Part shown: in pieces, positions 219-28,604 of the stretch
Layout of the letters: each line of letters starts with the position of its first letter
Numbering within the stretch: position 1 is the first letter of the stretch
Assembly: GCA_963766735.1 (NCBI GenBank)
Contig: CAVYBU010000032.1
Span: forward strand, 1 to 44,469
DNA length: 44,469 bases
Reading direction: 5' to 3'
Source of the DNA: an uncultured Chloroflexia bacterium
GTDB lineage: Bacteria > Chloroflexota > Limnocylindria > Limnocylindrales > CSP1-4
Program-made: the position numbers and the translations under genes
The notes under the pieces: model-generated
The model's database searches: none
What the model was told of the DNA's origin: nothing
What the model saw: only the letters and a program-made list of their open reading frames with translations

Positions 219-3200
219 GTGCCCCTTGTTGTGCCCGCGAAGGTCCGCGCACCGGTCCCGGATGCGTTGCCTCGCGAGCGCCTGGAGGCCCGCCTGGCCG
301 AGGCCTTCGGCAAGCGCCTCACGCTCGTGGTTGCACCCGCCGGCTCGGGCAAGACGACGCTCGTCGCGCGGTTCGCCGCGACCAGTGGCGCGCCCGTGGC
401 CTGGTATCGGGCAGAGACCTGGGACGCGGACGAGGACTCGTTCGTCCGCCACCTCGAGGCGGCGCTGCTGTCCGCGTTGCCGGGGCTGCCTGGCGGCTGG
501 GTGACGATCGAGGACGCGGCACGCGCCATGGAGGCTCACCCCGGCCCTGCCCCTGCCCCTGCCCTTCTCGTGATCGACGACTTCCACGCACTCGAGGACA
601 CGGCGGCCGAAGCGGCGTTCGGTCGCCTCGTGGACTGGGGGCCGACCTGGCTCACGCTGGTGCTGGTGTCGCGCGTGGCTCCCGGCCTCAACCTGTCCCG
701 CCTCCGGGTTTCTGGAGACCTGCTGGAGGTGGGGACGGACGACCTGCGGTTCCGCGCCTGGGAGGTGGAGCAGCTCTTCCGCGATGTCTACCACGACCCC
801 GTGCCGCCGGCCGACCTCGCCGTGCTCGCGCGGCGGACGGAGGGATGGGCGGCCGGGCTGCAGCTGTTCCACCTGGCGACCCGAGGCCGGTCTGCAGAAG
901 AGCGTCGGCGGGTCCTGGGCGGCCCGGGCAGCAGTGGACGCCTGCTGCGCGAGTACCTGGCCCAGAACGTGATGGTCGGCCTGCCAGCCGAGCTGCGCGA
1001 GTTCCTGATGGACACGTGCGTCCTCGGGCGGCTGTCTGGGGGCCTCTGCGACCGGCTGCGAGGGACATCGGGCAGCGGGTTGCTCCTGGACGAGCTTGCC
1101 CGGCGAGGCGTGTTCACCGTTCCGGCCGAGGACGGGACCGACGCCTACCGCTACCACGAGGTCCTCCGCCAGCACCTCGATCGGATGCTGGTCGAGGAGA
1201 TCGGGGAGGCTGCGGCACGGGTGCGCCACGGCGCCGCGGGCCGGATTCTGGAGGCCGAGGGCGCGCTGCCCGAGGCCCTGCGCGCCTACTGTCGCGCAGA
1301 GGACTGGGCTGAAGTCCGGAGACTGCTCGGCGGCGAGGGCGAGCGCCTGGCTGCCAGCCTGGCCGCGAACGAAGCCGGGGGCTGGATCGAGGCGTTGCCG
1401 CCCGGCATCGAGCGCCACGACCCATGGGTGGCGCTGGCGGCCGCCCGTCGGGCCCGCAATGACGGGCGCTGGGCAACGGCGCTTGCCTCGTACGCCCACG
1501 CGGAGGCCGAATTCGGGCCAGCGCGGGCCTCGGATGTCCCGCGTCGGGAGCGCCTGGCCCTGGCGGCGTGGATGGATCCGTCTGCCATCCCGCCGGCGGA
1601 CGCCTCCGGGGTTCTGCGCGCCGGCCTCGTGCGGGAGCCCGCAGCCGTCGCCAGGGCCCACCGCGGTGGGGCTGATGCGGCCATGCCCGTCGCGCGTGGG
1701 CTGCTCGCACTGGCCGCGGGGGACGTATCACTTGCAGGGCGTCTGCTCGGTGAGGCGGCGAACGGCGGCGAGCCAGGCCCTGTCGCGTGCGCGGGGGCCC
1801 GGCTGGGCTCGGTCGTGTCCGCGCTCCTTGCGGGTGAGCCGCCCGATGCGCGGGCGTTCGATCGCGCGGTCGAGGACGCGGAACGGGCCGGTTCCCCGTG
1901 GCTGGCTCGACTTGGTCGCAACCTTGCGCAGCGACTGGGTCCGGGTGGGTGGGATCGGAGGACCACGGGAGGGCGCGGGGGGGTTGAACGCCCACCGGTC
2001 GGGAGTTCGGAACCGACCGAGGAGCCCTGGTCGCGTGCGCTCCTTGCGCTGGCGGCGGCGTGGGCCGCGCCGGACGGTCCGGAGACTGCCCTCGACGATG
2101 CCGAGCGCGCCGCGGACGGCTTCCGGCAGCTTGGGGCGGGGGTTCCGGAGGCGTGGGCCCGGGCAGTGGGGGCCCTGGCCGCGTCATGGGCGGGAGAGCC
2201 GGATGCGAGGGAGGCGGCTCTCGCCGCGGAGAGCTGCGGCCGGGCAACCGGGACGCCGGCGGCCCGCGGGCTCGCGCTTGCGGCGCTGACGCGTCTCGAA
2301 GGAACCTCAAACCCCGACCATCCTCAGTTCGCCGCGGTCGCGGCGGCGGACAGCGGGCTCGCCCTGCCGCGCTGGGCCTGCCCCGGGCGCCAGAGCCTGG
2401 CCGACAGCAGCCCGGGTCTGATCCGGAATGTGGAGGAGGAGCCTGGCATTGCCGCCAGCCCGGGATCCGGCAACGGTGTGGGTGAGGGTCAGGCCGGGCA
2501 GGCGGATACTGGAGGCGGCCACAGGCCGGGAGCGCCGGTTCGTATCCGTCTCCTGGGCGGGTGTGCCCTCGACGTCGATGGCCGGATGATCGCCCTTGAC
2601 CGCGCCAAGCCCCGCGTCCGCTCGCTGTTCCGGCTCCTTGCGCTTCATGCGGGAGGCCCCGTCCATCGCGAGGTCATCCAGGAGGCGCTGTGGCCCGATG
2701 CGGACGCAACCGCGGGGTCGCGCAGCCTGCACGTGGCCCTGACGGCACTTCGGCGCCACCTGGACGACGCGGCAACGCCGCTCGACGGACGCCTCGTGGC
2801 ACGCGAGGGAAACGCATACCGGCTGGACGTGGGACCGGACGACGTGGACCTCGGCCGATTTGACCGCGCGATCGCCGCCGGGCGGGCAGCGCGGGCGCGG
2901 GGCGAGGCCTCTGCCGCCCCATTCGCCCAGGCCATCGACCTCTACGGCGGCGAGCTGTTGCCCGAGGAGGGCCCGGCGGAGTGGGTGACGGAGCGGCGTG
3001 ACCAGTGCCGCACTCGTGTGGTGGAGGCGGCACGGGGTCTGGCCGAGGAGGCTCTGCTCGCCGGTGACCACGCGATGGTCGTGCGGGCATGCCGGTTCGG
3101 CCTGGAGCTGGATCGCTACCAGGACGCGTTCTGGCGAATGCTGATTCTGGCTCGGGAGCGTGCCGGGGAGGCCAGCGCAGCGTCACGCGATCGGCGTGAG

Positions 3201-3260
3201 TACGCCCTCGTGCTGGAGGCGCTGGGCGTTGCGGCTACGGGGGCGGCTCGGCCGTCCTGA
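219..3260 (+). CDS. MalT-like STAND NTPase transcriptional regulator with C-terminal wHTH + BTAD (SARP-type) domains
   Basis: Walker A APAGSGKTT, Walker B LLVIDDFH, MalT-type TEGWAAGLQL and YRYHEVLR motifs. C-terminal IRLLG...EALWPD...AIDLYGGELLP is the wHTH/BTAD pattern. ORF is open from 21; GTG 219 is my estimate of the start. Confidence 0.85.
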   Translation: MPLVVPAKVRAPVPDALPRERLEARLAEAFGKRLTLVVAPAGSGKTTLVARFAATSGAPVAWYRAETWDADEDSFVRHLEAALLSALPGLPGGWVTIEDAARAMEAHPGPAPAPALLVIDDFHALEDTAAEAAFGRLVDWGPTWLTLVLVSRVAPGLNLSRLRVSGDLLEVGTDDLRFRAWEVEQLFRDVYHDPVPPADLAVLARRTEGWAAGLQLFHLATRGRSAEERRRVLGGPGSSGRLLREYLAQNVMVGLPAELREFLMDTCVLGRLSGGLCDRLRGTSGSGLLLDELARRGVFTVPAEDGTDAYRYHEVLRQHLDRMLVEEIGEAAARVRHGAAGRILEAEGALPEALRAYCRAEDWAEVRRLLGGEGERLAASLAANEAGGWIEALPPGIERHDPWVALAAARRARNDGRWATALASYAHAEAEFGPARASDVPRRERLALAAWMDPSAIPPADASGVLRAGLVREPAAVARAHRGGADAAMPVARGLLALAAGDVSLAGRLLGEAANGGEPGPVACAGARLGSVVSALLAGEPPDARAFDRAVEDAERAGSPWLARLGRNLAQRLGPGGWDRRTTGGRGGVERPPVGSSEPTEEPWSRALLALAAAWAAPDGPETALDDAERAADGFRQLGAGVPEAWARAVGALAASWAGEPDAREAALAAESCGRATGTPAARGLALAALTRLEGTSNPDHPQFAAVAAADSGLALPRWACPGRQSLADSSPGLIRNVEEEPGIAASPGSGNGVGEGQAGQADTGGGHRPGAPVRIRLLGGCALDVDGRMIALDRAKPRVRSLFRLLALHAGGPVHREVIQEALWPDADATAGSRSLHVALTALRRHLDDAATPLDGRLVAREGNAYRLDVGPDDVDLGRFDRAIAAGRAARARGEASAAPFAQAIDLYGGELLPEEGPAEWVTERRDQCRTRVVEAARGLAEEALLAGDHAMVVRACRFGLELDRYQDAFWRMLILARERAGEASAASRDRREYALVLEALGVAATGAARPS

Positions 3261-3345: not shown

Positions 3346-5238
3346 TCAGTTCCTCTTGAAGAACTCGATCTCGGAGATGGAGATCGGCGCGGCTTCCGGG
3401 CCGTTGGTCGCGGTGATGGTTATCACCACGGAGTCCGCCTTTGACGCGGACAGATCGAACGTCTGCGGATCGGGAATGTCCTCGACCGTGATCTTCTGTG
3501 ACGAGCCATCCGGGAATGCGAACGTGAACTCCGCCGGACGCCTGGTGTCGACGAAGGCCTTGGCCGCACCGACGTGGAGGATGACGGCGCCCAGGTCAAC
3601 CTCCTCCTCGAAGGAGACGGCAATCGAAGGCGCCTTGTCGGTGCCCTGCCAGTCCGTGTTCGTCGCGGCATCGAACAGCAGGCGAGCCGGATGATCGGCA
3701 ACCTCGCTGCTGGCGGTGACGGACACCGGCCGTTCGATCTCGAGGGTCGGTGCGATGGCCTTGCGAACAGTGTCGACGATCCCCGGAACGCCGCCGCTGA
3801 CCGCCTGGCTGATCGTCCCCCGGAACGACGGGATACCGATGTAGCCGAAGATGCCCACTGCAACGACGAGGCCGAGCGCAAGCCCGATGAGGTTCCTGAC
3901 CTTGAGGCCCTTCCGAACGAGGCCCTTCGCGCCATCGCGGCCGGTCGGCGAGGACCCCGGCGCCATGGGGCCGATCCGCTCGCCGGCGGCGTACTGCTTG
4001 GGTGCCTTCGGGCTGCGGTGGAGGACACGCTTCCACCAGGGAGGTGGCTTCTCCGTGACCACTTGCGCCGCGCCGAGTCCGGCACCGCAACGGCGACAGA
4101 ACTTGCGGGTCGGGTCGTTGGCCTCGCCGCAGCTCCCGCAGATCCGGTCGCCTGGCTGTGCGATGCGCTGCTCGACGGTGGTGGTCGGGCGCGGGCGAGG
4201 CTGGACGACGGCGGTTGGCTGACGGGAAACAGGCTGGTCGACCTGGACCGCTTGGGGCGGGCGCGCTGCCGGTTGGGCCGGGGGGATCGGAGCCGCCGCG
4301 ATGGGCGGACGGGCGGCGGGCTGGGCAGACGCCTGCGCCGGGGCCTGCGCAGCTGGCTGGGGCGCCGCGGATGGCGGCGGAGCGCCTCCGGCGGCGCCGG
4401 AGGTGAAGGTGGTGGAGATCTTCTTCGACGGGCCGCCACGACGGGCGGCGGGTTCGGGCTCGGGTTCGGGTTCGGGTTCGGGCTCAGGCTGCGGCTCAGG
4501 CTCAGGCTCGGGTTCAGGCTCCGGCTCGGGTAGCGGCGCGGGTTCCGGCTCAGGCTCGGGCTCGGGCCCAGGCTCAGGTTCGGGCTCCGGTAGCGGCTCA
4601 GGTTCGGGCTCAGGTAGCGGCTCGGGTAGCGGCTCAGGCTCAGGCAGCGGCTCAGGCACCGGCTCAGGCTCAGGCAGCGGCTCAGGCAGCGGCTCGGGCG
4701 CCGGCTCCGGTTCGGGTTCCGGCTCGGGTTCCGGTTCGGGCTCAGGCTTGGGCAGCGGCTCGGGCTCAGGTAGCGGCTCGGGCGCCGGCTCAGGCTCAGG
4801 TTGCAGCTCGGGTTCGGGCGCCGGTAGCGGCCTAGGCTCAGGCTCAGGTTCGGGTTCAGGCTCGGGCTCAGGCTCAGGCAGCGGCTCAGGCAGCGGCTCG
4901 GGCGCCGGCTCCGGCTCAGGTTGCAGCTCGGGTTCGGGTGCCGGTAGCGGCTCGGGCTCAGGTCGCGGCTCGGGCGCCGGCTCCGGCTCCGGTTCGGGTT
5001 CAGGTAGCGGCTCGGCCTCCGGCTCGGGCGCGGGTTCGATCACCACGATCCGGTCCGAGGCCGACCACCCGCGTGAGGACGTCGTCGCCGGAACCTCCGG
5101 CGACTCGACCACGGCCTCCGGGACATCCTCATCCGCGGTTTCTGCCTTCTTGCCCACCCACTCCAGGAATTGGCCGCAGTCTCCGCAGAACGCATCCGCC
5201 GCATCGTTCCTGTGTCCGCAGTTCCCGCAGACGATCAC
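3346..5238 (-). CDS. CisA-like bitopic membrane protein: double zinc ribbons, long Pro-Glu linker, single TM, C-terminal discoidin/glycan-binding-like beta domain
   Basis: CGNC...CGDC...FLEW and CGSC...CRRC ribbons, [23 protein letters not shown]-terminal TASS...LFD...W...ISEIEF. Last gene of the CIS structural operon. GGGGAG upstream of the GTG start. Confidence 0.8.
4450..5037 (-). repeat. Coding (Pro-Glu)n low-complexity repeat with internal duplicated blocks
   Basis: About 190 codons of [10 protein letters not shown]. The block [21 protein letters not shown] occurs twice. Confidence 0.9.
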
Positions 5239-5320: not shown

Positions 5321-5878
5321 TCAATCCCTGGCCGCCCCAGCGGACTTGACGATCTCGATCCGGTGCATGACGTGGGCAGGCTTGGCCGCCGCGACCATCG
5401 CGTCCAGCCGGGCCGTGTCAACCGCCTTCGGATCGGCAACGGAAACCCGCACCACGACGAGGGGTTCCGGCGAGCCTGGCAACTCGCCGCCCGGATCGAC
5501 CGACCAGCTCGTCCCTCCGTTCTCCGCGATCTCCACGGTGCCGCCGGTCTGGATCTCGACCTGGCCAGCGAGCCCGGCTGCCGTGCCACGCAGGCGGTAC
5601 AGGTCCACGGCCCGCAAGACGATCGCCCGCCGCCTCGGCTCGTCCCAGCTCTCGTCCAGCGCGATACCCACCCAGCCTGCCAGCCATGAAAGGAAGTCGT
5701 CCGGCGTCAGGTTCGGGTCGAGGTAGGCGTCGAAGTTGTCGAGTGTGCTGAAGATGGGCGCCAGCACGTCGTCCAGGCCGGCAAGGAAGCGCTGGGCGAA
5801 ATCATCGTCCTGGTACAGCGCCGGCAGCGCAGGGCCCAGCGGGTGGGGCGTCAGGAGCCCGGCAACGGAGCCACGCAT
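5321..5878 (-). CDS. CIS baseplate wedge / phage tail protein (P2 gpI-like, TIGR02242-type)
   Basis: LPALYQDDDFAQRFL...YLDP...FLSWLAGWVG...YRLRGT...KPAHV motifs. TGATG overlap with the baseplate J stop. Confidence 0.85.
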   Translation of the reverse strand: MRGSVAGLLTPHPLGPALPALYQDDDFAQRFLAGLDDVLAPIFSTLDNFDAYLDPNLTPDDFLSWLAGWVGIALDESWDEPRRRAIVLRAVDLYRLRGTAAGLAGQVEIQTGGTVEIAENGGTSWSVDPGGELPGSPEPLVVVRVSVADPKAVDTARLDAMVAAAKPAHVMHRIEIVKSAGAARD

Positions 5879-7824
5879 CACCCGCCCTCGACCATGACCT
5901 GGTGCTCGTAGCTGAACACGAGGGCGTGCGGCTCCACCTCGAGGCGCGGCGCCTGCTGTCCGCGCTGGCCCGTGACCGGGTCCGCACCGAACAGGCGCGC
6001 ATCCTCGACCATCTCCGTGCCGCGCAGCTGCTGGAGAACCGAGTACACCTCGCCCACGTTCACCGGGCGCCCAAACGGCCAGCCGGTCCCGTCCGGCCCA
6101 CCCGAGATCGGGTGGAAGTACTCGTACAGGGCCAGGAGCGCCTCCTCCTGGAGCCGGGTGGGGTTCGCCCGGGACCGTGCCTTGAGCTTGGCCACGATCG
6201 TGATGCCCCGATAGACGGGAGGCTCGACGATCGCCCGCGTGCCGATGACCCGGCTCTCCTCGAGCCGGTCGGTGATCTTCTGGAGGGTGTCCGGGTTGGG
6301 GACCAGCTGGTCGAAGCGAAGGCGCCCCAGGTCGGCAACGGCGGACGGCACGATGAGGACCCGGACCGACCCCGCGTCGGCCCCGTCACCGGCGGCGACT
6401 GCCCGTACGCGGGCGACCTCCGGCGCCGCCTCACGTGCAAGCTGCTCGTAGTCCTCGGTTGTGACCGCGCGGCTCCGGGCCCGAAGACGGATGGGCCCCC
6501 GGACCTTGGCATTCTCGATGTCTTCGGCATCGACGCCGCCCCGGGCGGGCCGCCGGTTCTCGACGCGCGAAACGAATGGGATCGAGGACTTGAGGACGGT
6601 GATCGCGCGCGCGGCGACGTTGCCGCGCCGGCCGCCGCCGATGCGGTACTCGCGCAGCCGCAGGTGGGCGCCCTTGGGGGCCACCGCGCCGTAGCGCCGG
6701 AACACACCATCGGCGAGCCGCACGGCAGGGCCGAGGCAGACCTCGCCCGTGGACAGGTCGAACACGAAGTGCCGGTCATCAGGACCGCTGGACGCGAAAT
6801 CGCCGACGTGCGTCCACTCGTCCCAGCCATCGTCCCCGGTGACCTCCAGGACGGGGCTGTTGCTACCCGGCACGACCGGGCCGCGCTTCACCGGGTATCG
6901 CTGCCCGGGCACACCCTCGGAGATGCCGACCTCCTCGGCATACACGAGTTCGGCATTCACGGCATCGACCGTGCCGCCGATCGTGATCGCCGTAAGGCCC
7001 TTGATGTTGGGCGAGGTGCTGTACGCCGGCTGTCCCTCGGCCTGCTCGGTGACGCGGGCCCGGAGCCAGCCGGCCCGCTGCTTCGTGATCAGCGACGCGA
7101 CGTGGCCTCGGGGAACGTGGATGGTCACGTCTCCGTCCCGGTTCAGGCCGCCGGTCGTGTCCGAGTCCACCTCGCACGGCTCCCATTCGTCGCCCGTCCA
7201 GGCCTCCCAGGCGAGCGGCGGGTTGGTCGGATCGACGCCCACGCCCTCGATGTCGGCCTTGAAGCGCAGTCGCACGGTGTTGGACGGCACGGCCTCGCTC
7301 AGGCCGATGTACAGCGCGTCGCCGGGCTTGGGCTCCTGCTGGAAGCAGAACACCTCAGCGCCCTTCTCGAGCGCGCTGCCGTGGTCCCGGAGCGTCTTGC
7401 CATCGATCATGGAGCCCAGTCGGGCGAGGCTGCTCGGGATGATCGCCAGGTCCTCGATCGTCGTGAACGCGATCGCCTCGGAGGTGTCCGTGCGGGCCGT
7501 CGCCGCCTGGGTCCCCGCCGCGATCAGCTTGACGTCCGGCTGGGGCGCGGAGAGCCAGAACGTCACCGCGGTCCGGGCGGCGGTCGGCGGGTACAGGCCC
7601 ACGCCGATGAGCTCCAGGAACTTGACGTAGTTCCGGTCCGGGATCCGGTTGAGCCGGTAGACGACCTGGTCGGTCATCCACGCGAACAGCTCAATCAGGG
7701 TCACCCCTGGATCGGAGACGTTGTGGTCGGTCCATTCCGGACAGCGCTGCTGGACGAGCCGCTTGGCGTCGTCCACCAGGTCCTGGAACCGGCGGTCGTC
7801 GAGGTTCGGGACCGGCAGCACCAT
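5878..7824 (-). CDS. CIS baseplate assembly protein (baseplate J / gp6-like, TIGR02243-type)
   Basis: MVLPVPNLDDRRFQDLV...WTDHNVSDPGVTLIELFAW, RAVTTEDYE and GWPFGR motifs. Start ATG 7824 lies inside the longer listed ORF. Confidence 0.92.
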   Translation of the reverse strand: MVLPVPNLDDRRFQDLVDDAKRLVQQRCPEWTDHNVSDPGVTLIELFAWMTDQVVYRLNRIPDRNYVKFLELIGVGLYPPTAARTAVTFWLSAPQPDVKLIAAGTQAATARTDTSEAIAFTTIEDLAIIPSSLARLGSMIDGKTLRDHGSALEKGAEVFCFQQEPKPGDALYIGLSEAVPSNTVRLRFKADIEGVGVDPTNPPLAWEAWTGDEWEPCEVDSDTTGGLNRDGDVTIHVPRGHVASLITKQRAGWLRARVTEQAEGQPAYSTSPNIKGLTAITIGGTVDAVNAELVYAEEVGISEGVPGQRYPVKRGPVVPGSNSPVLEVTGDDGWDEWTHVGDFASSGPDDRHFVFDLSTGEVCLGPAVRLADGVFRRYGAVAPKGAHLRLREYRIGGGRRGNVAARAITVLKSSIPFVSRVENRRPARGGVDAEDIENAKVRGPIRLRARSRAVTTEDYEQLAREAAPEVARVRAVAAGDGADAGSVRVLIVPSAVADLGRLRFDQLVPNPDTLQKITDRLEESRVIGTRAIVEPPVYRGITIVAKLKARSRANPTRLQEEALLALYEYFHPISGGPDGTGWPFGRPVNVGEVYSVLQQLRGTEMVEDARLFGADPVTGQRGQQAPRLEVEPHALVFSYEHQVMVEGG

Positions 7825-7826: not shown

Positions 7827-8225
7827 TCAGTCTCCTCCCGGGATCACGTAGAAGGGGAACACGAGGTTCCGGCGGTCGTTGGTGCGCCGGATCGAATAGC
7901 GGATGTCGATGTACATCACGGTCGCATCCCGGGCATCGAAGCTCACGAGGACGTCCTCGACGTCGATCCGCGGCTCCCAGCGCCGTAGCGCGGCCCTGAC
8001 CTCCGCGGAAATCGCCGAGGCGGTCGTGCCGTCCGCGGACGAGAAGACGTACTCGTGGATGCGGCAGCCGAACTCGGGTCGCATCGTCCGCTCGCCCGGC
8101 GAGGTCCCGAGGATGAGGCGAATGGCCTCTTCGATCTCGCGCTCGCGTGACACCAGCGCGATGCCTCCGGTCGCGTCGGTGCGGAGCGGAAAGGCCCAAC
8201 CTCGGCCGATGAACTCGTCGCTCAC
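7827..8225 (-). CDS. GPW/gp25-family baseplate protein
   Basis: FIGRGWAFP...ILGTSPGERTMRPEFGC...WEPRI...NLVFPFY. Confidence 0.93.
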   Translation of the reverse strand: MSDEFIGRGWAFPLRTDATGGIALVSREREIEEAIRLILGTSPGERTMRPEFGCRIHEYVFSSADGTTASAISAEVRAALRRWEPRIDVEDVLVSFDARDATVMYIDIRYSIRRTNDRRNLVFPFYVIPGGD

Positions 8226-8235: not shown

Positions 8236-8625
8236 TCAGGCCACGGTCACGTCGGCCACGGTCGCCAGCGGCTGGCCCGGCACCTGGCCGCACATCGCCA
8301 CCTGGGAGCTGCTGGTGGCGATCGGCTTGCCTCCCGCCGTCACGGTGGGGCTGCCGCTGAGCACCCGTCCCTCCTGGAGCGTGGGCAGCATGAACGGGTC
8401 CGCGGGATGCAGGCCCACGTGGGGTGGCGTGTTGAACCCGGACGAGCCCATGACGGCAACGGGCTTGCCGCCGATCGTGACGGTGGCCTCCAGGCCCTGC
8501 AGCAGCGGGGCCGAGAACGGCATTGGGGCAGGGGAGGGCTGGGGTGCACCCGAGGCCGGGTTGGGCACCTGGTGGATCGCGCATTGGCCCTGGATCTTGT
8601 CGCCCATCACGAGGGGTTGTGCCAT
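8236..8625 (-). CDS. PAAR-like spike tip protein
   Basis: Repeated VTIGGKPVA / GSPTVTAGGKPIA, His/Cys candidate metal ligands, located between vgrG and gp25. Confidence 0.8.
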   Translation of the reverse strand: MAQPLVMGDKIQGQCAIHQVPNPASGAPQPSPAPMPFSAPLLQGLEATVTIGGKPVAVMGSSGFNTPPHVGLHPADPFMLPTLQEGRVLSGSPTVTAGGKPIATSSSQVAMCGQVPGQPLATVADVTVA

Positions 8626-19525: not shown

Positions 19526-20137
19526 ATGCGCGACCACGATCTGACACCGCCCGCGCACCGGGCACCGCAGCGGAAGCCCGGTGGCACGACCCCGGATGGA
19601 GCGGGCCGCCACTTCCTGCCTGCCCGCTCCGCGGGCCTGGACGCTGCATCTCTGATGCACCTGCAGCGGGCCGCCGGCAACGCGTCGGTGGTCCAGCTGC
19701 TTGCGGGCGAGGAGGAGCAGTCGCCGGTCCACGACGTGGTGGGGTCCGGCGGGGGTGCGCCGCTCGACGCCGACACTCGCTCGACCATGGAGTCCGCCCT
19801 CGGCGCCAGCTTCGGGAACGTGCGTGTGCATACGGACGATCGGGCGTCGAAGTCTGCCGAGTCCGTGGGCGCCAGCGCCTACACCGTGGGCAGCGACGTG
19901 GTCTTCCGGACCGGCCAGTTCAATCCGTCCACGCCCACGGGCCAGCGGACCCTGGCCCATGAGCTGGCGCACGTCGTCCAGCAGTCCCAGGGACCCGTGG
20001 ACGGAAGCGATGCTGGCGGCGGGATCCGGCTATCGAGCCCGTCAGACCGCTTCGAGCAGGCGGCCGAGGAGACCGCCCAGGGGGTGATGGCCTCGGTCCA
20101 GCGGCAGGAGGAGGAAGAGGAGGAGGCGCAGATGTGA
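19526..20137 (+). CDS. Stand-alone DUF4157 (eCIS core domain) protein
   Basis: LQRAAGNASV, GAPLDADTR..ME..LG..FGNVRVHTD, AYTVGSDVVF, LAHELAHVVQQ (HExxH). RBS AGGAGG upstream of ATG 19526. Confidence 0.9.
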   Translation: MRDHDLTPPAHRAPQRKPGGTTPDGAGRHFLPARSAGLDAASLMHLQRAAGNASVVQLLAGEEEQSPVHDVVGSGGGAPLDADTRSTMESALGASFGNVRVHTDDRASKSAESVGASAYTVGSDVVFRTGQFNPSTPTGQRTLAHELAHVVQQSQGPVDGSDAGGGIRLSSPSDRFEQAAEETAQGVMASVQRQEEEEEEAQM

Positions 20138-20187: not shown

Positions 20188-20832
20188 CTAGATCAGCCCC
20201 TCGCGGATGGCGTATGCCACGGCGTGCGTCCGGTTCCGGAGCTCCAGCCGCGACGTGATGTCATGGATGATGTTCTTCACGGTGCGCTCGGAGTAGAACA
20301 GGCGCCCGGCGATCTCCGAGGTGTCGTTCCCGTCCGCCAGCAGCCGGACCACGGCCGCCTCGCGCTCCGTCAGGCCAGAGAACGTGAGGCCACGCGGGGA
20401 CAGCACCTGCCGCTGCAGCTGGCCGACCTGACGAAGAAGCCGCCCCAGCAGATCCGGGGGCAGCGTGCCCTCGTCCGCCGCCGCGGACCGGATGGCCGCC
20501 GCGAGGTTGCCCGCGGTCGCCTCGCTCCGGCGCAGGACGCCCGTCACGCCCGCCTCGGCCGCCGCCAGGAGCCCGCGGTCGTCCACCCGGGACACCAGCA
20601 GCAGGATCCGCCGCACGCCGCGGCCCCGCAGCGAGCGCATCTCGCCAAGCGTCGTGCTGTCCAGGTCCTCCGCCACCACCAGCGCGACGACGTCGTCCGG
20701 GAGCTCCCCGTCCACGACGCCAAACCCCTGCGCCCGGCGTAGCTGGCTGGTGATGCCGGCCCTCGAGAGCGGATCGGCGGCAGAGACGTGGACCGGGATC
20801 CGGGCCTTGAACGGGACGGGTTCGGCGACCAT
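20188..20832 (-). CDS. LuxR/NarL-family regulator with atypical receiver-like N-terminus
   Basis: C-terminal LTERE...LLADG...EIA..LFYSERTVKN...LELRNRTHAVAYA. GGGGAGGT RBS before ATG 20832. Confidence 0.88.
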   Translation of the reverse strand: MVAEPVPFKARIPVHVSAADPLSRAGITSQLRRAQGFGVVDGELPDDVVALVVAEDLDSTTLGEMRSLRGRGVRRILLLVSRVDDRGLLAAAEAGVTGVLRRSEATAGNLAAAIRSAAADEGTLPPDLLGRLLRQVGQLQRQVLSPRGLTFSGLTEREAAVVRLLADGNDTSEIAGRLFYSERTVKNIIHDITSRLELRNRTHAVAYAIREGLI

Positions 20833-20964
20833 GGTGACCTCCCCAGGGTGGTGGGTCGGGACGAGGTGGACCACGGAGCGGGCCACCGGCCCGGGATGCC
20901 GAGCCGGACGCTACGCCGCCCCTCTGTCCGGACAGTCAACGTGGACTTAACGGGCAGTGCGGAT

Positions 20965-21046: not shown

Positions 21047-22312
21047 GTGGGTGCCTCAGTCACGCTGGTCACGCCCGCCCTCGCTGTCGAGCCGGGCCAG
21101 GTCGCTTCCGTCGACATCAGGATCCGGAATACCGGGACCGTCGTGGACGAGTTCGCCCTCGACGTCCTGGGGGACGCGGCGGGCTGGGCCGTCGTCGAGC
21201 CAGCGTCCATCTCCCTCTTCCCGGGTGCCGAGGGCACGGCCAGGGCCGTGTTCAGCCCGCCCCGGGCCGCCGGCACGCCGGCGGGCATCGTCCCATTCGG
21301 GCTGCGTGCCCGGTCCCGCGAGGACCCGGCCGGATCCGCGGTCGAAGAGGGCACGGTCGAGATCGGCACGTTCCAGGATCCCTACGCGGAGCTGGTCCCG
21401 CGCACCTCCCGCGGCTCGCGGTCCGGCAGCCACGACGTTGCCGTTGACAACCGCGGCAACGCCCGGCTGTCGGCCGAGCTCGAGGCGACCGATGCCGACC
21501 GCCACCTCAGGTTCGACGTCAAGCCACCGGCCGTCGTCGTCGATCCCGGCATGGCAGCCTTCGCCAAGATCAAGGTCAGCCCCGCCAAGCGGTTCTGGCG
21601 TGGTCAACCGAAAACGCGGCCGTTCCAGCTGTACGTGAAGCCGGACGGCGGCGTGCCGATCACGCTCGACGGCACGCTGCTGCAGGAGTCCGTCCTGCCG
21701 CCGTGGTTCCTCAAGGCAATCATCGCCATCGTGGGCGTCCTCGTTTTGCTGGTCCTGATCTGGCTGTTCCTGCTCAAGCCCTCGATCGAGTCCGCCGCCT
21801 CCGAGGCCGTCGCCTCACCGCTGGCAAGCCTCCGGGGTGACGTCAACGCCGCGCTCGGCAACGCCGGCCTCCCAACGATGCCCGCCGATGGCGGCGCCGC
21901 CCCGCCCCCGCCCACCCCCGAGCCCACCCCGGCACCCACGCTCGCCCCCGGGGAGAGCGCGACACCTGAGCCGCCGCCCACCGCGCCGCCTACGCCGGGT
22001 GTCCTGATCCCGGGTCTCGGCAACCCGGTGGACGGCCAGCTGGACGAGACGAACAAGTCGGTGCCGGTCGCGGGCACCCTGTTCATCACGGACCTGGTGT
22101 TCTCGAACCCGAACGGGACCAAGGGCGCGGTGGTCGTCCTGCGTGACGCCACGCCGCTGATCCAGCTGAATCTCGAGAACTTCCGCGACTACGACCTCCA
22201 TTTCGTAACGCCGATCGTGCTCCAGGACGGCCAGAGCCTCAACCTCTCGCTGTCCTGCACGAGCAGCCCATGCACCCCCGCCGTCTTCTACTCCGGATAC
22301 CTGCGGCCCTGA
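21047..22312 (+). CDS. COG1470-like membrane protein: N-terminal Ig-like domains, single TM, Pro-rich linker, C-terminal beta domain
   Basis: VEPGQ...IRNTGTVVDEF...LFPG, VDNRGN, TM AIIAIVGVLVLLVLIWLFLL, ITDLVFSNP...LENFRDYDLHFVTPI. TACACT lies 6 nt before GTG 21047. Confidence 0.75.
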   Translation: MGASVTLVTPALAVEPGQVASVDIRIRNTGTVVDEFALDVLGDAAGWAVVEPASISLFPGAEGTARAVFSPPRAAGTPAGIVPFGLRARSREDPAGSAVEEGTVEIGTFQDPYAELVPRTSRGSRSGSHDVAVDNRGNARLSAELEATDADRHLRFDVKPPAVVVDPGMAAFAKIKVSPAKRFWRGQPKTRPFQLYVKPDGGVPITLDGTLLQESVLPPWFLKAIIAIVGVLVLLVLIWLFLLKPSIESAASEAVASPLASLRGDVNAALGNAGLPTMPADGGAAPPPPTPEPTPAPTLAPGESATPEPPPTAPPTPGVLIPGLGNPVDGQLDETNKSVPVAGTLFITDLVFSNPNGTKGAVVVLRDATPLIQLNLENFRDYDLHFVTPIVLQDGQSLNLSLSCTSSPCTPAVFYSGYLRP

Positions 22313-22323
22313 GGCGCGCAGGC

Positions 22324-24391
22324 TTGAGGGTCGGGGCGGCCGGCCTGGTCCTGGCGCTCCTGGCTACGGGATCCGCGGCCGGTCCCGCCGTCGGCACGGC
22401 CGGCCCAGTCGCGCCCAGCCAGACACCGGTCCCGGCCGCCGTGCCACAGCCGCCGGGCATGACCACCCTCGTCTCGCAGAGGTTTGGGGGCGGGTTCGCG
22501 GGTGGCGGCTCGCGCTCGCCGTCCATCAGCAGCAACGGGCGGTACGTGGCGTTCATGTCGGGGGCCGCCGACCTCGTTGCGGGCGACACCAACGGGGCGG
22601 TGGACGTCTTCGTCCGCGACCGATCCAAGGGCACCACGCTCCGGCTGCCGCTCCCCGGAGGGGCGCAGGTGCCGCCCACCGGCCTGGTGAGCGAGCCCGC
22701 CATCTCCGCGGACGGCAAGGTGGTCGCGTTCACGTACTCCGACACGTCCAGCGTTAGAGGCGCCATGTCCATGGTGTATGCGTGGGACCGCGACACGGGC
22801 AAGACCGAGCTGGTCTCGCGAAACGGCGAGACAGAGGCGAGGCAGAGCCGGGAGCCGTCCGTCTCGGCCGACGGCCGGTACATCGCCTACACGTCGGAGC
22901 AGCCCTTTCTGGTTGACTCCGACACCAACAACTACAACGCTGATGTCTTCCGTTTCGACCGCAAGAGCGGCACCTCGATCCTGGTCAGCGCGGGGTTCCA
23001 GGGCGTCACCCCGACGGGCGCCAGCGGCCAGCCGTCCATCTCTTCAGACGGCACCAAGGTGGCCTTCACGTCCGATGCCGGTCGGAGTCTCGTGAACGAA
23101 GACACGGGATCCGGTCTCCAGGTCTACCTGCGTGACATCACCGCCAGCACGACCGAGTGGATCAGCCGCGGCGTCGACTCCGGGATGCGAGGGGCACCGG
23201 CGAACGGGCCGTCTGAGGCTCCGGCGATATCGGCTGATGGCCGCTACGTGGCGTTCGAATCGAGGGCCGGGAACCTCGTCGATGTGGCCGGTTGCGCCGG
23301 GCTCGTGGCAGGTGTACCGGCGCGACCGGGAGACCGGCCTGACGGTGCTTGTCTCCGCGGACGCGTCCGGGGCTGCGCCCGCGGGCGGAAGCGGCCAGGC
23401 CGCGATCTCGCGTGATGGTCGGATGGTTGCATTCTCCGCGTCGGCACGGGACCTGGTTGCCGGGGTGCCCCTTGGATCGGTCCCGGCAGTCCGTCTCGCC
23501 GCCGTCGCGCTCCGGACGTCCGAGATCTACATCCGCGACATGACCGCAGGCGAGACGGCGCTGGTGTCCGTGGACACGGCCGGCGGACCGTCCGGGGCGA
23601 GGAGCCAGGGCTCTGCTGTCGCCGGGAACGGGCGCTATGTCGCCTTCTTCTCGGACGCGCCGACGCTTGTCGCCGGTGACGGGAACAAGCAAGTGGACGT
23701 GTTCATCCGGGACTTCCCGCCAGTGCCCGTGCTCAACCCCGCGGTCGTGGAGTTCGGCACGGGCGCGCTCGGGACGAGCCCGGTGCCGGGCGCCGCGGTC
23801 CTCACGAACGCGGGCTGGGGCACGTTGGCGGTCTCTGGCGCGTCCCTGGCGGGTTCCGCGAAGGGCGACTACTCCATCGCGGCCGACGGCTGTGCGAAGA
23901 GGATCCTGCATCGCGCCGAGGCGTGCACGATCACCATCGTGTTCACCCCCAAGGAGCCGGGTGTCAGGACCGCGACGCTCGAGGTGGCCGACAACTACAA
24001 GGGCTCGCCGCGCACGGCACGCCTCACGGGCGGTGGCTCGCTCGCCCTCCTGGAGCTGAGCCCGGAAGTCGCGCGGCCCGGGCTGGTGGTCATCGCCAAG
24101 GGAAGCGGTTTCCCGCCCGGGGCACAGGTCCGGCTGCGCTGGAGCCGCGGGATCAGCGAGGACCTGCCGGTGGTCACGGCCGATGGGCAGGGCGCGTTCA
24201 CCCGGCAGGTGCTGGTCTTCCACAACGACCTGCTCGGCAGGCGTGACCTCCTGGCCGAGTCGGCAGGCGGGCCGCCCTTCCCGCCCGTCGCGGCGCCGCT
24301 GCTGGTGACGGAACCGCCGATGGCCCCGCCCAGCTTCGAGGTCCTGCGGCGCCTCATCGACCTTCCGCTCGTCCTGATGATCCGGGGATGA
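22324..24391 (+). CDS. Exported TolB/PD40-repeat beta-propeller protein with C-terminal Ig-like domains; +1 frameshift at ~23292
   Basis: Signal-like N-terminus and repeated PSISxDGRYVAFxS / DVFVRD units across ORFs 22270..23415 and 23132..24391. Removing one T joins them. Start uncertain. Confidence 0.75.
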
Positions 24392-24398: not shown

Positions 24399-25553
24399 AT
24401 GACCGATGGGGCCGGGCTGACCTGCCGCCGGTGCGGCTTCGCGAACGAGGGCAGCGACCAGTTCTGCGGCTCGTGCGGAGTCTTCCTGGAGTGGGAGAGC
24501 GAAGCCGCCGATGCCATCGGTGCCGGCAAGCCGCCCGCCGGCGTCCCGGCCACGCCCGTCGCCCCAACAGGCCCACGCTCCGCCCCGCCAGGCGACGACG
24601 AGGGGCTGTCGGCGCCCGTCACTCCCGCTGCAACCCCGCTCGCCCCGGTTGCCGAGGCCGGACCCCTGCTCCGGTGTCCCGCGTGCGGCATCGCGAACGC
24701 CGGGACCCGTACGTTCTGCCAGTCCTGTGGCGCACGTCTCGCGGAGACCGCCCGGGTGACGGAGGCATCGAAGGAGCAGATTGCGGCTGCGGTCGCCGCC
24801 AAGGCCAGGCCAAAGACCGTGCCGGTGGCGGGCGTCACCGCGGCACGCACGGAGCCCGCCGGAGGGAGCGCCCGGGGGATCGCCGGCTGGTTGATCGTTA
24901 TGGTGCTGCTGGGGCTCGTGGCCGGGGCCCTGGTCGTGATCGGCAGCGTGGTGCTCAAGAGTCCCGGACCCGCCACCGGGGCGTCCGAGGCCCCCAGCGC
25001 CGCCGCAAGCGCCGGCTCGTCGTCCGGGTCCGGGACCACCGATGCTCCCGTTTCATCCTCGGAGCCGGCCAGCGGCGAGCCGCCGGCGAAGGTCGAAGGG
25101 GCCGCGCTGGCGTTGACTGGCGCGACCGCGTCCTCCGTCGTGGGCGATCGGGCGAAGTTCCAGCCGGACAAGGCAATCGACGGGGACGTCAAGACGTGCT
25201 GGCAGGAGGGCGTCAGGACCGAGAAGGGCCAATGGATCGAGGTGTCCTTCGACACGGCCCGCGTCGAGGCCGTCGTGATCAACAACGGCTACGGGGCCTC
25301 GACCGCGCTCTACAAGGGCAACCACCGGCCCAAGAAGGTCCAGATCTCCGTCAACGGCGGCAAGCCCATCACGGTCACGCTCAAGGACACCGTGAAGGCC
25401 CAGCGGATCAGCCTGGGCGAGAACCCCGGCGCAACCCGGCTCCGGATCACGATCGTCTCCGTCTATCGGTCGGTCAAGACATCGGTCGCGGGGACGCCGT
25501 TCGATGACGCGGCCATCAGCGAGATCAGCGTAATCGGGACAATTGGCGGATGA
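24399..25553 (+). CDS. Second CisA-like protein: double zinc ribbons, TM, C-terminal discoidin/glycan-binding-like domain
   Basis: CRRC...CGSCGVFLEW, CPAC...CQSC, TM IAGWLIVMVLLGLVAGALVVIGSVVL, TASS...AIDGD..TCWQEG...RPKKV...AISEISV. Confidence 0.8.
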   Translation: MTDGAGLTCRRCGFANEGSDQFCGSCGVFLEWESEAADAIGAGKPPAGVPATPVAPTGPRSAPPGDDEGLSAPVTPAATPLAPVAEAGPLLRCPACGIANAGTRTFCQSCGARLAETARVTEASKEQIAAAVAAKARPKTVPVAGVTAARTEPAGGSARGIAGWLIVMVLLGLVAGALVVIGSVVLKSPGPATGASEAPSAAASAGSSSGSGTTDAPVSSSEPASGEPPAKVEGAALALTGATASSVVGDRAKFQPDKAIDGDVKTCWQEGVRTEKGQWIEVSFDTARVEAVVINNGYGASTALYKGNHRPKKVQISVNGGKPITVTLKDTVKAQRISLGENPGATRLRITIVSVYRSVKTSVAGTPFDDAAISEISVIGTIGG

Positions 25554-25625: not shown

Positions 25626-26636
25626 GTGAGCGCGATCGGCGCGGCCCTCATGCGCGGTGTGGCGAGCCTCGGTGGCCCCCAGGTGGCGGCCGTCGTGGTC
25701 GCGGGCGGCCTGGTCGTCGGCGGCCTGGGCGGGGCGGTCATCGCATCGGGTGGGCCAGGCAGCCAGCCGGCCACCACCTTGGGGGAGCTTGCCGTCTACC
25801 CCTGTCCGGATCAGGGACCGGCGCTGCTGACCATCACGGGGGGCCAGAAGCTCCTGGCCACCGGGCGCACCGAGGACGGGACGTGGCTCAGGATCCACTA
25901 TCCGCTGCCCGGGCGGACGGAGGCCTGGGTCCAGGCGTCTCCGCTGTTGGTGAAGGGCGAGGCGGTCTCGCTGCCGATCGCAACCTGTGCTGCGGTGGTT
26001 GCTGCGGGTTCGCCGGACGTGAGGCCCCGCGCCTCGCTGACGGCGATCCTGAACCTCTCGCCGTCGCCGGCTCCCACGCCGACGCCGAGCCCGACGCCGA
26101 CGCCAAGCCCGACGCCGTCCCCCACGCCCAAGCCGACCGCCAAGCCCACGGCGAAGCCGACCGCGAAGCCCACTGCCGAAGCCGACCGCCAAGCCCACGG
26201 CGAAGCCGACCGCCAAGCCCACGGCGAAGCCGACCGCCAAGCCCGACCGCGAAGCCGACCCCGACCCTGCCGCCGCCGCCGACGCCCCCGCCCGACACGA
26301 CCCCACCCAAGATCGCGACCCCGGCGCTCTCGAGCTCCTCCATGTACCAGTCGACAAGTGCTCGCCGAGTTCGATCCTCGTCATCGTCGGCGTCACCGAT
26401 GCGCAGTCAAAGGTCGCGAGCGTGTCCATACGCGCCATCAACGCCCGACCGGGGCGAGGGTGGGGACGTGGACGAGCAGCGCCCGTCGGCGCCGCATGGC
26501 GAGTGACGCTCCAGGGCTCTGACTTCGACTTGGGGACGTTCCGCATCCAGGTCAACGCGACGGACTCGGCCGGGAACTCGACGGGCTTCACGACCACCAG
26601 CGGCCATCTTCAAGGTGCTGCGCGTGCATCCTATGA
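25626..26636 (+). CDS. Membrane-anchored protein with SH3-like domain, PT/AKPT repeats and C-terminal Ig-like domain; several frameshifts
   Basis: Hydrophobic N-terminus, GRTEDGTWLRI...AWV (SH3-like), (AKPT)n, then DTTPPKI... and FRIQVNATDSAGNS in other frames. The stop at 26634-26636 overlaps the next ATG. Confidence 0.55.
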
Positions 26637-28604
26637 GCCTCCTCGCCCGCCTCATCCCAAGACTCCTCGTGTTCGGCGTGGCGGCGGTGATCGGCGCCAT
26701 CGTCGCCTCCGTCGCCGTCGCAGCCGTGCAGGACCGCACGCCGCAGTCCACCGCCGGACTTGCCCCCGTCCCCGAGTTCACGATGACCGGCCCGGATACC
26801 CCCTCGGGCCCGGACATGCCCGTCGTGCCCGGGGCAGTCGTCGCCTTCAACGCGGTGCCGAGCGGCGAACCGCAGCCACTCGCGACCCTCTCGCCGGAGG
26901 ACCTCCTGGCCGCCTCGGCCGCGTTGCTCGGCGGTGAGCCCGTCTCCTTCGTCAACCCGTCCGGCTTCCCGCGCATCCCGCCCATCACCCAGTTCGACGG
27001 CGGCCCTTTCCAGGGCGCCAACTGCACGCTCGCGTCCGGGGCCATGCTGGTCCGAGTGGGCTCCGGCGTGGTTACCACGGGATCGACGCTCCGCACCCTC
27101 CAGGACGATCAGGACGGCGGGACGGGGCTTGGAGACCTCTCGGTCGCGCTCTGGCGCGGCTACGGGATCCACTACCCGAGCGGACTGATCCGCCCCGACC
27201 AGCTCAAGTCGCTGCTGGGTGCCGGGTACGGCGCCGTGGTCCAGGGCGACTACTCCAGGGTTCCCCGCGCCCTGCGGCTCCAGAAGGACTTCACGGGCGG
27301 CCACGCCATCTACCTGGACGGCTACTACCCGGGCAACGCCAAGCGCGGAATCCCTGAGGCCTACTACGTCATCGACCCGCTCGGCCGTCCGCAGTCCGGG
27401 TACGAGGGAGACTGGTGGCCGGCGTCGATCATCGATGCGTTCGCCGGTTCATTCGGCGGTGGGCGCGTCGCGGCGATGTGGGCGTTCCCGCCCGGCGGCG
27501 TGGCCCCCGAGGTGGTCGGCCCGGACGTGCTGCCGATCCCGGCCGGCCCGGGCGGCGGCAGCTCGGGTTCCGGTTCGGAGCCCGGATCCGATCCAGTTGC
27601 CTCCGGCGAGTCGCCATCCCCGGCCACACCGCCCGACGCGCCGATCAACGTGCTCGAGCCCGGCGACCTGACGGTCACGCTGCCGGCGGCCGATCCGCCC
27701 GCGTCCGATGCCGGCTCCGGCGGGCTCGAACTCAGGCCGGTCTTCGAATTCTGCTCTGTCCACGCCGAGGCCTCCGGGGTGTCCGACCGGCCTTGAGGCC
27801 GTCTTCGAGCGTGGCGCCATGGCCGAGCTCCGGTTGCCCGCCGGCCCGGCGGTCGACGTCCTGTTCGCGGATTCCGACCGGGCCAACGTTGTGATCGTCG
27901 GCTTCACGGTCGATCCGCCCGCCGTGGCGGACGTCCACTTCTGGAAGACGGGGGCTGGTCCGCAGGTCGTGCGATCCGCGTCCTCGATGTCGTCGGTCTC
28001 GCTGTTCGGGAAGACGGTCCTGCTGGCTCGCCTGGACGTGCAGGCGGACACGACGTACCAGTTCCAGGCGGTGGCCGGCAGCGGGCTGCTGGCGGGCAAG
28101 AGCGAGGTGGGGTCGTTCACGACGGGGAGCGGCGTCGAGCAGTTCGACGTGGTGCTGTCCCAGGCTGCCTCGCCGGTGTTCAAGCTGGGGACCGGCCTCT
28201 CGCCGTATCTGCACCTGGCCCAGGGCGCCTTCGTGCAACCGATGATCCCGCTGGGAGACCTTGGCGGCGCGACGTGCCTCGAGACCGCCGACTACGGCGG
28301 CAAGGGTTTCTGCCTGGAGGTGGGCGGCACGCCGCCGCCGTCCGTCTGCAACCGGGCCGAGGTGACCTATGCGCTGTCGGGGATCGACGCGGAGTCCGTG
28401 GCGATCCGCGCGTTCCCGGCCGTCGAAGGCGTGACCCCGGACGGGGCGATGACCTTGGACGGCGTCCTGGAGGCATCCGGAGCATGGCCGGCCGGTAGCG
28501 CGAGCGTGGGATGCCTGGCGTCGGGCCTGACGTACCGGATCGTGCTGGATGCGATCGGGGACGACCGGGGCGCCCTGGCCGTGGAGACGGTCACCGTCCC
28601 GTAG
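26633..28604 (+). CDS. Exported/anchored papain-like (C39-type) cysteine peptidase with C-terminal beta domains; +1 frameshift at ~27755
   Basis: N-terminal hydrophobic segment; Q (ITQFD), C (ANCTLASGAM), H (GGHAIY), D (YYVIDP) in papain-fold order. Removing one base joins 26615..27796 to 27708..28604. Confidence 0.65.

Follow-up and report, generated by a model that had tools for sequence, protein, structure and literature searches.

The window, by which we mean the whole stretch of 44,469 bases analyzed here, is one entire contig (C32, 72% G+C) from the genome of an uncultured bacterium of the Limnocylindria group of Chloroflexota, and it carries a gene cluster for a contractile injection system (CIS). 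Judged by sequence similarity and gene order, the cluster belongs to class IId, the Streptomyces type, and so is a known machine in a new host. Taking the evidence as a whole, we think it likely that this is an intact chromosomal class IId CIS of the Streptomyces cytoplasmic type. The genome (3.62 Mb in 35 contigs, 93.85% complete) also has 72% G+C, and owing to this high G+C content we called genes by third-position G+C. We scanned 37 reading frames of the window against Pfam, searched additionally for PF14065, and also scanned PHROGs.

Identity of the injection system

The core proteins were most similar to those of the Streptomyces coelicolor CIS (CIS-Sc; sco4242-sco4263; PDB 8BKY, 9GTP, 9GTR and 9GTS, the last three being the CIS-Sc models of the CisA paper). 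A comparison of nine core proteins with all solved structures gave CIS-Sc as the top match for eight, the exception being the main tube; classes were ranked by E-values against solved chains rather than by a tree. The sheath (Cis2; 14653..16164, minus strand), also recognized by Pfam, matched 8bky_A with an E-value of 7.2e-198, with 8bky and 9gtp at the top of the search, and matched the sheath of a second Streptomyces-type CIS at 8e-195. The next lineage followed at 1e-119, and the remaining matches were at 1e-51 or weaker. The Baseplate_J wedge protein Cis11 (648 amino acids (aa); 5878..7824, minus strand, start codon located; Pfam) matched 9gtp_1K over its full length at 1.5e-232, and the runner-up reached only 4.6e-6. 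The short wedge protein Cis12 (Tail_P2_I; 5321..5881, minus strand) matched 9gtp_E at 3.6e-49 and has nearly the same length (186 versus 190 aa). The cap protein Cis16 (DUF4255/Pvc16_N; 16334..17068, plus strand; PF14065, 130.9 bits) matched 9gts_0A at 4e-56. Similar results were obtained with the gp25-like sheath initiator Cis9 (7827..8225, minus strand; phrog_261, E 2.9e-28; 9gtp_V, 3.8e-48), the tube initiator Cis7 with its CIS_tube and LysM domains (10331..11068, minus strand; 9gtp_P, 3.7e-35), and the second tube protein Cis1b/Cis5 (Phage_T4_gp19; 11078..11563, minus strand; 9gtp_a, 4.9e-23). The VgrG spike protein Cis8 (8637..10321, minus strand) is split over three frames in this assembly, with Phage_GPD and Phage_base_V on separate frames. 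Using the intact orthologue of a relative, G006, as the query, we found a match to 9gtr_q at 1.8e-81.

The genes are arranged in two arms that diverge at the sheath. The minus-strand operon runs from 16164 to 3346 and encodes, in order, the sheath, the tube, a 145-aa protein, a DUF6760 protein, a 670-aa protein, the second tube protein, the CIS_tube and LysM initiator, VgrG, PAAR, gp25, Cis11, Cis12, and a 630-aa zinc-ribbon membrane protein. The divergent arm encodes the DUF4255 cap, an AAA+ ATPase, a small DUF4157 protein, a LuxR-type regulator on the opposite strand, and five membrane or exported proteins, the last of which ends at 28604. The PAAR spike tip (8236..8625, minus strand) scored 32.9 bits against PF05488 (cut-off 27), and the ATPase (Cis15; 17065..19218, plus strand, start codon located) has a winged-helix domain (PF22977) together with PF00004. 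A preliminary description, made from the sequence alone, had called the system Streptomyces-style and listed a sheath, two tubes, a LysM initiator, VgrG, PAAR, gp25, two baseplate proteins, DUF4255, an AAA+ ATPase and DUF4157. The searches against solved structures agree with that assignment, and all of the listed parts were present, on the strands and in the order implied (Pfam, PF14065, PHROGs). It had also called the system complete, which is right in that every core gene is there and needs qualifying for the split VgrG.

The gene order is shared with clusters from Streptomyces and Kitasatospora. In all three plasmid clusters inspected, from Streptomyces clavuligerus (pSCL4), Kitasatospora and Streptomyces sp., the order is the same as in the window: sheath, tube, homologue of the 145-aa protein, DUF6760, large variable gene, tube(s), LysM, VgrG, (PAAR), gp25, Cis11, Cis12 and zinc-ribbon membrane protein. 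The Streptomyces gene order that had been proposed for the window therefore extends down to the small genes. The particle gene set is common to the window and CIS-Sc, and the two also share the short Cis12, the single-protein cap, the lack of a fibre gene, a protein with a zinc ribbon, transmembrane (TM) helix and carbohydrate-related domain directly after cis12, a Sco4256-type protein with PapD-like domains and a TM helix, and LuxR and SARP/BTAD regulators close by. The window differs from CIS-Sc in its host (Chloroflexota instead of Actinomycetota), in having the cap and ATPase genes directly adjoining the sheath gene, in the long Pro/Glu repeat linker of its CisA homologue and the presence of a paralogue in a five-gene envelope operon, and in the poor conservation of its main tube.

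Other types of contractile system fit less well. The extracellular systems Afp, PVC and AlgoCIS have the core families and the accessory set of DUF4255, ATPase and DUF4157 in common with the window, but the similarity is far weaker (about 1e-45 to 1e-50 for the Afp and PVC sheaths, and 1e-4 or no match for Cis11), and their Afp13-type fibres and long Cis11/12 proteins are missing from the window. The assignment to class IId draws on a sheath and a baseplate J protein nearest to those of CIS-Sc, a short Cis12 wedge, a single-protein Cis16 cap, and a gene order that ends in a membrane protein and has no Afp13-type fibre. A type VI secretion system is contradicted by the ATPase, which is of the Cis15 type with a winged-helix domain and AAA domain, and by the lack of TssJ/L/M, ClpV and a TssB/C sheath in the Pfam scan of the window.

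We also considered a defective prophage tail or R-type tailocin. There are phage-tail homologues for every core gene, including the chaperone-like and tape-measure-slot genes. However, the sheath does not group with prophage or tailocin sheaths by E-value, its matches to the pyocin sheath (1.2e-13) and to T4 gp18 (1e-16) being far weaker than that to CIS-Sc. The CIS markers, the DUF4255 cap, AAA+ ATPase and DUF4157, are all encoded. As the preliminary description had stated, no capsid, terminase, holin, endolysin, tail-fibre, TssJ/L/M or ClpV family was found among the 37 reading frames of the window by Pfam; no other head family and no integrase was found either, and the flanking housekeeping genes are syntenic with those of relatives. 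We consider a phage or tailocin origin of this kind very improbable.

The tape-measure slot contains a chaperone-like gene and a large variable gene. The 145-aa protein (13737..14174, minus strand; phrog_508, E 2e-4) shares 66% identity with the protein that fills this slot in Streptomyces. Its AlphaFold2 (AF2) model (pLDDT 73) was nearest to YqbN (3klu; Z 7.0, root-mean-square deviation 6.2, 101 aligned; VIA) and matched the HK97 tail assembly chaperone 2ob9 at Z 6.1, both Z values being middling; Mu gp41 and T4-like hub-assembly proteins were among the matches to viral models. The DUF6760 protein (52 aa; 13582..13740, minus strand; PF20546, E 8.7e-13) starts in an ATGA overlap with the upstream stop codon. 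The Pro/Ala/Ser-rich 670-aa protein (11573..13585, minus strand) had no family match in Pfam, NCBIfam or PHROGs, and its similarity to the 1020-aa protein that occupies this slot in a Streptomyces cluster is weak and confined to the N-terminus (E 7e-5). Among the best 80 sheath loci of 569 relatives (hereafter the 80 related loci), DUF6760 is found in 78 and the 670-aa protein in 50. The CisA paper describes the CIS-Sc cluster as having no tape-measure gene; the window and the Streptomycetaceae plasmid clusters differ from CIS-Sc as published in filling this slot. Median identity across the 80 related loci is 80% for the sheath, 78% for the 145-aa protein and 44% for the main tube. We considered whether the chaperone-like gene and DUF6760 might be joined by a programmed -1 frameshift; the reading frames would allow it, but we do not claim one, as a slippery heptamer is lacking and the start and stop codons overlap.

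The CisA homologue and the membrane-protein arm

The gene directly after cis12 encodes a CisA homologue, as judged from alignments and domain layout. The 630-aa protein (3346..5238, minus strand) has a zinc ribbon at its N-terminus and, after a linker of about 250 aa made of Pro/Glu repeats, a second one, followed by a PWWKR motif, one TM helix (residues 451-469), and an outer C-terminal domain of the NADase-type discoidin (glycan-binding) kind. It matched DZR and Zn_Ribbon_1 in Pfam and scored 48.5 bits against NF047619 (cut-off 38). By BLASTP it was 33% identical over 319 aa (E 2e-35) to the Kitasatospora protein encoded at the cisA position, in an alignment that spans the second zinc ribbon, PWW motif, TM helix and C-terminal domain; the N-terminal ribbons of the two proteins were 58% identical (E 1e-11). 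Collinear but weak alignments were found to the counterparts from S. clavuligerus (E 4e-6 and 6e-4) and Streptomyces sp. (E 4e-5 and 6e-4). In the available text of Vladimirov et al. (PMC10020575), Sco4242 is described as Cys-rich, and probably Zn-binding, in the region that immediately precedes its TM helix, with a carbohydrate-related domain of about 150 aa behind the helix, and both this architecture and the position after cis12 are found in the window. Because of the Kitasatospora alignment, the collinear counterparts and the published architecture of Sco4242, we assign the protein to the CisA (Sco4242) family of bitopic proteins, whose cytoplasmic N-terminus is disordered. The preliminary description had the operon ending in a bitopic membrane adaptor, and the evidence for one is stronger than it had claimed. 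The alternative of a mere analogy to CisA, with an outer domain of another kind, was rejected, since the plasmid clusters and Vladimirov et al. point to homology.

The N-terminal zinc ribbon is the most conserved part of the 630-aa protein. Sixteen columns were invariant in 19 of 19 aligned sequences from Chloroflexota and Dormibacterota, and the ribbon is encoded directly after cis12 in 25 of the 80 related loci. From these alignments, the motif appears to be common to Chloroflexota, Dormibacterota and a Kitasatospora cluster. The linker, by comparison, is highly variable in length (the proteins of the window, G006 and G010 have 630, 651 and 817 aa), with no such variation in the two zinc ribbons or the outer domain; in two further relatives the gene is broken inside the repeat.

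We predicted a complex of Cis11, Cis12 and residues 1-45 of the ribbon. The score was 0.43 (0.44, 0.43 and 0.42 in separate runs), which is classed as 'weak support', with a partner pLDDT of at least 69; the best of three controls scored 0.00. In the calibration of the method, 58 of the 80 solved complexes reached the mark, as did 2 of the 110 mismatched pairs, and scores of 0.60 or less included only 7 of the 80 solved complexes along with both of the passing mismatches. According to the CisA paper, CisA is membrane-bound with its N-terminus inside, is predicted to touch Cis11, and is required for contraction and for stress-induced death in Streptomyces.

Based on these findings, we propose a mode of action carried over from Streptomyces, in which the system would act inside the producing cell and be docked at the membrane, as the preliminary description had suggested by homology. 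The particles would assemble free in the cytoplasm. Upon a stress signal, possibly sensed by the outer glycan-binding domain of the CisA homologue, its cytoplasmic zinc-ribbon part would recruit the Cis11/Cis12 wedge to the cell membrane. The sheath would then contract against the producer's own membrane, and membrane-active cargo, possibly the Sco4256-family protein described below, would damage the envelope such that the producing cell dies.

An extracellular CIS would work differently: particles released by lysis would bind other cells, the gene after cis12 would encode a carbohydrate-binding substitute for a fibre, and the cargo would be aimed at competitors. A carbohydrate-binding fibre substitute was the original reading of Sco4242 in the available text of Vladimirov et al. 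(PMC10020575), which also reports Sco4242 in purified particles. In the window, the gene is in the position of a fibre gene and its product ends in a glycan-binding domain. In addition, relatives of the window encode polymorphic-toxin-like cargo beside DUF4157, for example a 2858-aa annexin protein that ends in an AHH nuclease, and the small partner genes beside this cargo could be immunity genes. Against this, because the TM helix has the zinc ribbons on its N-terminal side, the CisA homologue would sit in the membrane of the producer with the glycan-binding domain outside, an arrangement unlike the assembly of a fibre. CisA itself was shown to be membrane-bound and is absent from the particle structure (CisA paper), Pfam found no lysis cassette in the window, and related particles of Roseiflexus were seen only inside cells in the available text of PMC12998442. 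We judge the extracellular alternative improbable, and favor the cytoplasmic type.

The divergent arm probably encodes a second adaptor. The 384-aa protein (24399..25553, plus strand; PF25302, E 3.5e-19; NF047619, 103.6 bits) has two zinc ribbons, a TM helix and an NADase-type discoidin domain, the same layout as the 630-aa protein, and we classify it by this similarity as a CisA paralogue. A further proposal, which we regard as speculative and more doubtful than probable, is that the N-terminal zinc ribbon (C..CG..N...D.FCG.CG.FLEW) serves throughout the CisA family as a conserved module for docking to the baseplate, carried on a repeat leash of variable length, and that Limnocylindria duplicated the adaptor into a five-gene envelope operon. 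If this were true, the duplicated adaptor would let one cytoplasmic machine answer two different cell-wall signals, and in a small-genome lineage that is not known as filamentous, self-killing would serve something besides mycelial development. By the comparison across phyla, the invariant part of CisA is this N-terminal ribbon of roughly 30 residues, a concrete candidate for the still unproven contact between CisA and the baseplate, testable in Streptomyces.

The first of the five membrane or exported proteins of this arm is a putative effector. The 421-aa protein (21047..22312, plus strand) is predicted (AF2 model, pLDDT 85) to have two Ig domains of the PapD/ASH type, a long TM helix, a linker, and a Cys-containing beta-sandwich, and its nearest folds by Foldseek were ASH/PapD-type Ig domains, including FimC complexes, not fibres. 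Its two halves were 41% and 37% identical (E 3e-69) to the product of a gene beside the Kitasatospora CisA homologue, and it was 39% identical over 258 aa (E 2e-48), covering the N-domains and TM helix, to a protein of the S. clavuligerus cluster. A homologue search with the protein itself found close relatives only. In the available text of PMC10020575, the Sco4256 family is described as having a pilus-chaperone-like first domain, a TM second domain and a variable third domain, with homologues in IId clusters of Chloroflexi. Based on the fold, the BLASTP matches to proteins of class IId clusters and this description, we place the 421-aa protein in the Sco4256-4258 family of putative effectors. 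It is the only effector candidate in the window. The statement in the preliminary description that there is no recognizable toxin thus holds only in part.

The remaining three genes of the arm encode an exported protein with a PD40 beta-propeller and Ig domain (22270..24391, plus strand; Pfam; frameshift near 23294), a membrane-anchored protein with a Pro/Thr linker (25626..26589, plus strand; frameshift near 26181), and an N-terminally anchored protein without a family match (26615..28604, plus strand; frameshift near 27760). The first is a single gene of about 700 aa in relatives, and the last is a single gene of about 660 aa in three relatives, whose intact orthologue matched no Pfam family and gave Atlas scores of at most 0.80, which are leads only. 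All five proteins of the arm have a TM helix or an N-terminal anchor. The PD40, Pro/Thr-rich and 660-aa proteins are N-terminally anchored and for that reason cannot be cytoplasmically assembled fibres. Together with the Ig-like fold of the 421-aa protein and the lack of any Pfam fibre family in the window, this agrees with the view that no fibre is recognizable. The expanded membrane-protein arm of the preliminary description has five genes, and the whole arm is conserved in the genus, but by similarity it consists largely of known CIS partners, the CisA family and the Sco4256 family. In the relative G010, a Sco4256-like and a zinc-ribbon gene form a second, divergent pair beyond the SARP regulator (L014:37-970). 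The contig of the window ends at SARP, and such a pair could lie just outside.

Frameshifts, cargo and the state of the cluster

Four genes of the cluster have, in all, five one-base insertions relative to intact orthologues, as determined from the frames of aligned segments: two in VgrG, near 9955 and 9178, and one each near 23294 (PD40), 26181 and 27760. VgrG was one intact frame in all five relatives; blastn with this region reached only one of the five, and the comparison was made at the protein level. We looked at contigs from sequencing runs and treated contig joints with sides of only 20-24 bases as chance. The base at 9955/9956 was absent from the contigs of all three runs with cover, which came from three studies, and one of these contigs was otherwise identical over 346 bases; a fourth run had no cover. 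One-base differences were also found at 23294 and at 26441-26601. Both VgrG insertions are in a TCGAC context, the second within GTCGAC, which could point to a systematic error in base calling or polishing. The Pro/Thr-rich low-complexity stretch at 25943-26609 had a summed contig depth of 23-1436 in all four runs and several one-base differences; the jump in depth is probably cross-mapping from unrelated organisms.

Frameshift-like junctions are widespread in this assembly. A composition-based heuristic found 385 genome-wide (1.06 per 10 kb) and 1.35 per 10 kb on this contig. With strict thresholds there were 89 in the genome, 64 of the same '+1' kind. The assemblies of relatives are broken in other genes. 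Based on these observations, we conclude that the frameshifts are most likely assembly errors, and that the CIS is for this reason probably intact in the organism.

The stretch next to the DUF4157 gene differs from that of relatives. The small DUF4157 (eCIS_core) protein (19505..20137, plus strand; PF13699, E 3.7e-32) resembles Sle2 and may be a cargo adaptor; its gene is present in a single copy in the genome. The distance from DUF4157 to LuxR is 50 bases in the window; in five relatives from the same genus, additional genes take up 2.4 to 22.6 kb there. They encode small partner proteins and proteins with annexin repeats, some of the latter with PG_binding_1 and one with an AHH nuclease at its C-terminus. 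The annexin-repeat proteins have 565-2858 aa (L015:3070-11646 in G010; L012:9814-12108 and 12790-14487 in G006; L017:2381-4657 in G014), and each is paired with a partner of 220-240 aa that has no family match, in what looks like an exchangeable cargo and immunity island. Annexin-type proteins are found in 16 of the 80 related loci, and annexin domains beside extracellular-type CIS (eCIS) genes have already been described by Geller et al. Small DUF4157 proteins of Streptomyces act together with an effector encoded next to them, as Sle2 does with Sle1 (PMC13277306; J Bacteriol 2026). The SLP cluster of S. lividans likewise has its small DUF4157 protein on the arm divergent from the sheath, and the large variable protein after Sle2 (Sle1) follows the same pattern as in the relatives of the window. 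The relatives' neighbors are annexin-repeat proteins (PG_binding_1 or AHH nuclease), not coiled-coil tape-measure-like proteins as in SLP, and the window, unlike SLP, has no cargo gene after DUF4157.

If the five frameshifts were real mutations and the cargo island beside DUF4157 had been lost, the cluster would be a decaying, non-functional copy. The five frameshifts lie in about 25 kb of CIS genes and none was noticed among the housekeeping genes that fill 16 kb of this contig; with strict thresholds, frameshift-like junctions are about 3 times as frequent in the window as in the genome overall. The near absence of sequence between DUF4157 and LuxR and the lack of an annexin-type gene in the genome would fit such a loss, and losses do happen, since 10 of the 24 other genomes in this genus lack the sheath. 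However, all five events are alike, each being one extra base, and there are no stop codons and no deletions. Every other core gene is intact, with a sheath that is 89-92% identical to those of relatives. The run contigs without the extra base at 9955, the one-base differences at other sites and the frameshift-like junctions throughout the genome also argue against decay, which we consider unlikely.

Several points weigh against an intact class IId CIS of the Streptomyces cytoplasmic type. First, the main tube (Cis1a; 14179..14613, minus strand; Phage_T4_gp19) had only weak solved matches, the best by E-value was not from Streptomyces (9r9h_B, 3e-9), and the Streptomyces tube ranked third. Second, the homology of the CisA and Sco4256 proteins rests on positional counterparts in the three Streptomycetaceae plasmid clusters and on published descriptions, and beyond the zinc ribbons the CisA homologue is only weakly similar to its counterparts in S. 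clavuligerus and Streptomyces sp. The CisA paper describes the C-terminal domain as solute-binding-protein-like, and here it scores as discoidin-type. The predicted docking of the ribbon with Cis11 and Cis12 is a hint, not proof, given its 'weak' class of support. Third, the cytoplasmic mode would be carried over from Streptomyces and from the imaging of Roseiflexus in the available text of PMC12998442. Fourth, there is no cargo gene beside DUF4157, and no annexin-type protein was found in the genome at its completeness of 93.85%, mainly by tblastn, as PF00191 matched no control genome. Lastly, the sites near 9178 and 27760 had no cover among the 12 read-evidence rows listed, and under strict thresholds 3 frameshift-like junctions fall in the window against an expected number of about 1.1 (0.675 versus 0.246 per 10 kb), an excess that is compatible with some real decay.

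Distribution, regulators and flanking genes

Related clusters are found mainly in Chloroflexota. The titles of 65 of the 80 related loci name Chloroflexia, Chloroflexota, Chloroflexi, Limnocylindr* or Anaerolineaceae (74-92% sheath identity), 13 name Dormibacter* (73-75%), and two have other names. The titles of the nearest relatives (Limnocylindria) support the non-Streptomyces host, possibly Chloroflexota, that the preliminary description had suggested. The sheath is present in 14 of the 24 other genomes of the genus and in none of 16 genomes from the small-genome sister family. Of 401 Chloroflexota genomes sampled, from 217 genera, 52 genomes and 31 genera have a Cis11-like gene (E of 1e-50 or lower), this genome and the unpublished G266 being counted. 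A search of plasmids with the Cis11 protein gave 41 records, among them 25 from Streptomyces, 5 from Deinococcus and 2 from Kitasatospora. In several loci with Dormibacterota titles (L085-L101), neither the AAA+ ATPase nor DUF4157 was found at 10 kb or less from the sheath, and the cap gene has the Sco4256-family gene as its direct neighbor.

Class IId CISs in Chloroflexota are already in print, according to the available text of PMC12998442 and PMC10020575. The former (ISME J 2026), as far as its available text goes, describes a clade IId CIS of Roseiflexus, of a Chloroflexota-Deinococcota lineage, with particles unanchored inside cells, and proposes cytoplasmic action. The class and the host phylum are shared with the window. 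Roseiflexus is described in the same text as having no close cisA homologue, whereas the window cluster has one. We found no paper that treats CISs together with Limnocylindria or Dormibacterota, although one may exist. The window reveals no new kind of machine. It would extend the Streptomyces-type cytoplasmic CIS, with its CisA and Sco4256 partners, to abundant uncultured Chloroflexota of soil and sediment, and the related loci would extend the Streptomyces-type CIS to Dormibacterota too.

Two regulators are encoded close to the cluster. The LuxR/GerE regulator (20188..20886, minus strand; PF00196) has a counterpart in 43 of the 80 related loci. A SARP/AfsR-like regulator with NTPase, winged-helix and BTAD domains (3..3260, plus strand; Pfam BTAD, AAA_22 and Trans_reg_C) diverges from the core operon, and this position is kept in all five same-genus relatives. 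The sequence ends at the left edge of the window beside this gene, whose reading frame is still open there. The S. clavuligerus cluster is likewise flanked by BTAD regulators.

At the other end, a gene for an XRE-type helix-turn-helix protein (28549-29532) lies between the last accessory gene and an alcohol dehydrogenase gene. It is not there in the relatives G006 and G014, and its C-terminal third resembles out-of-frame sequence. The right-hand 16 kb of the window contain housekeeping genes, including those for alcohol dehydrogenase, phosphoenolpyruvate carboxylase and NhaA, and the genes from 29.8 kb on are of this kind.

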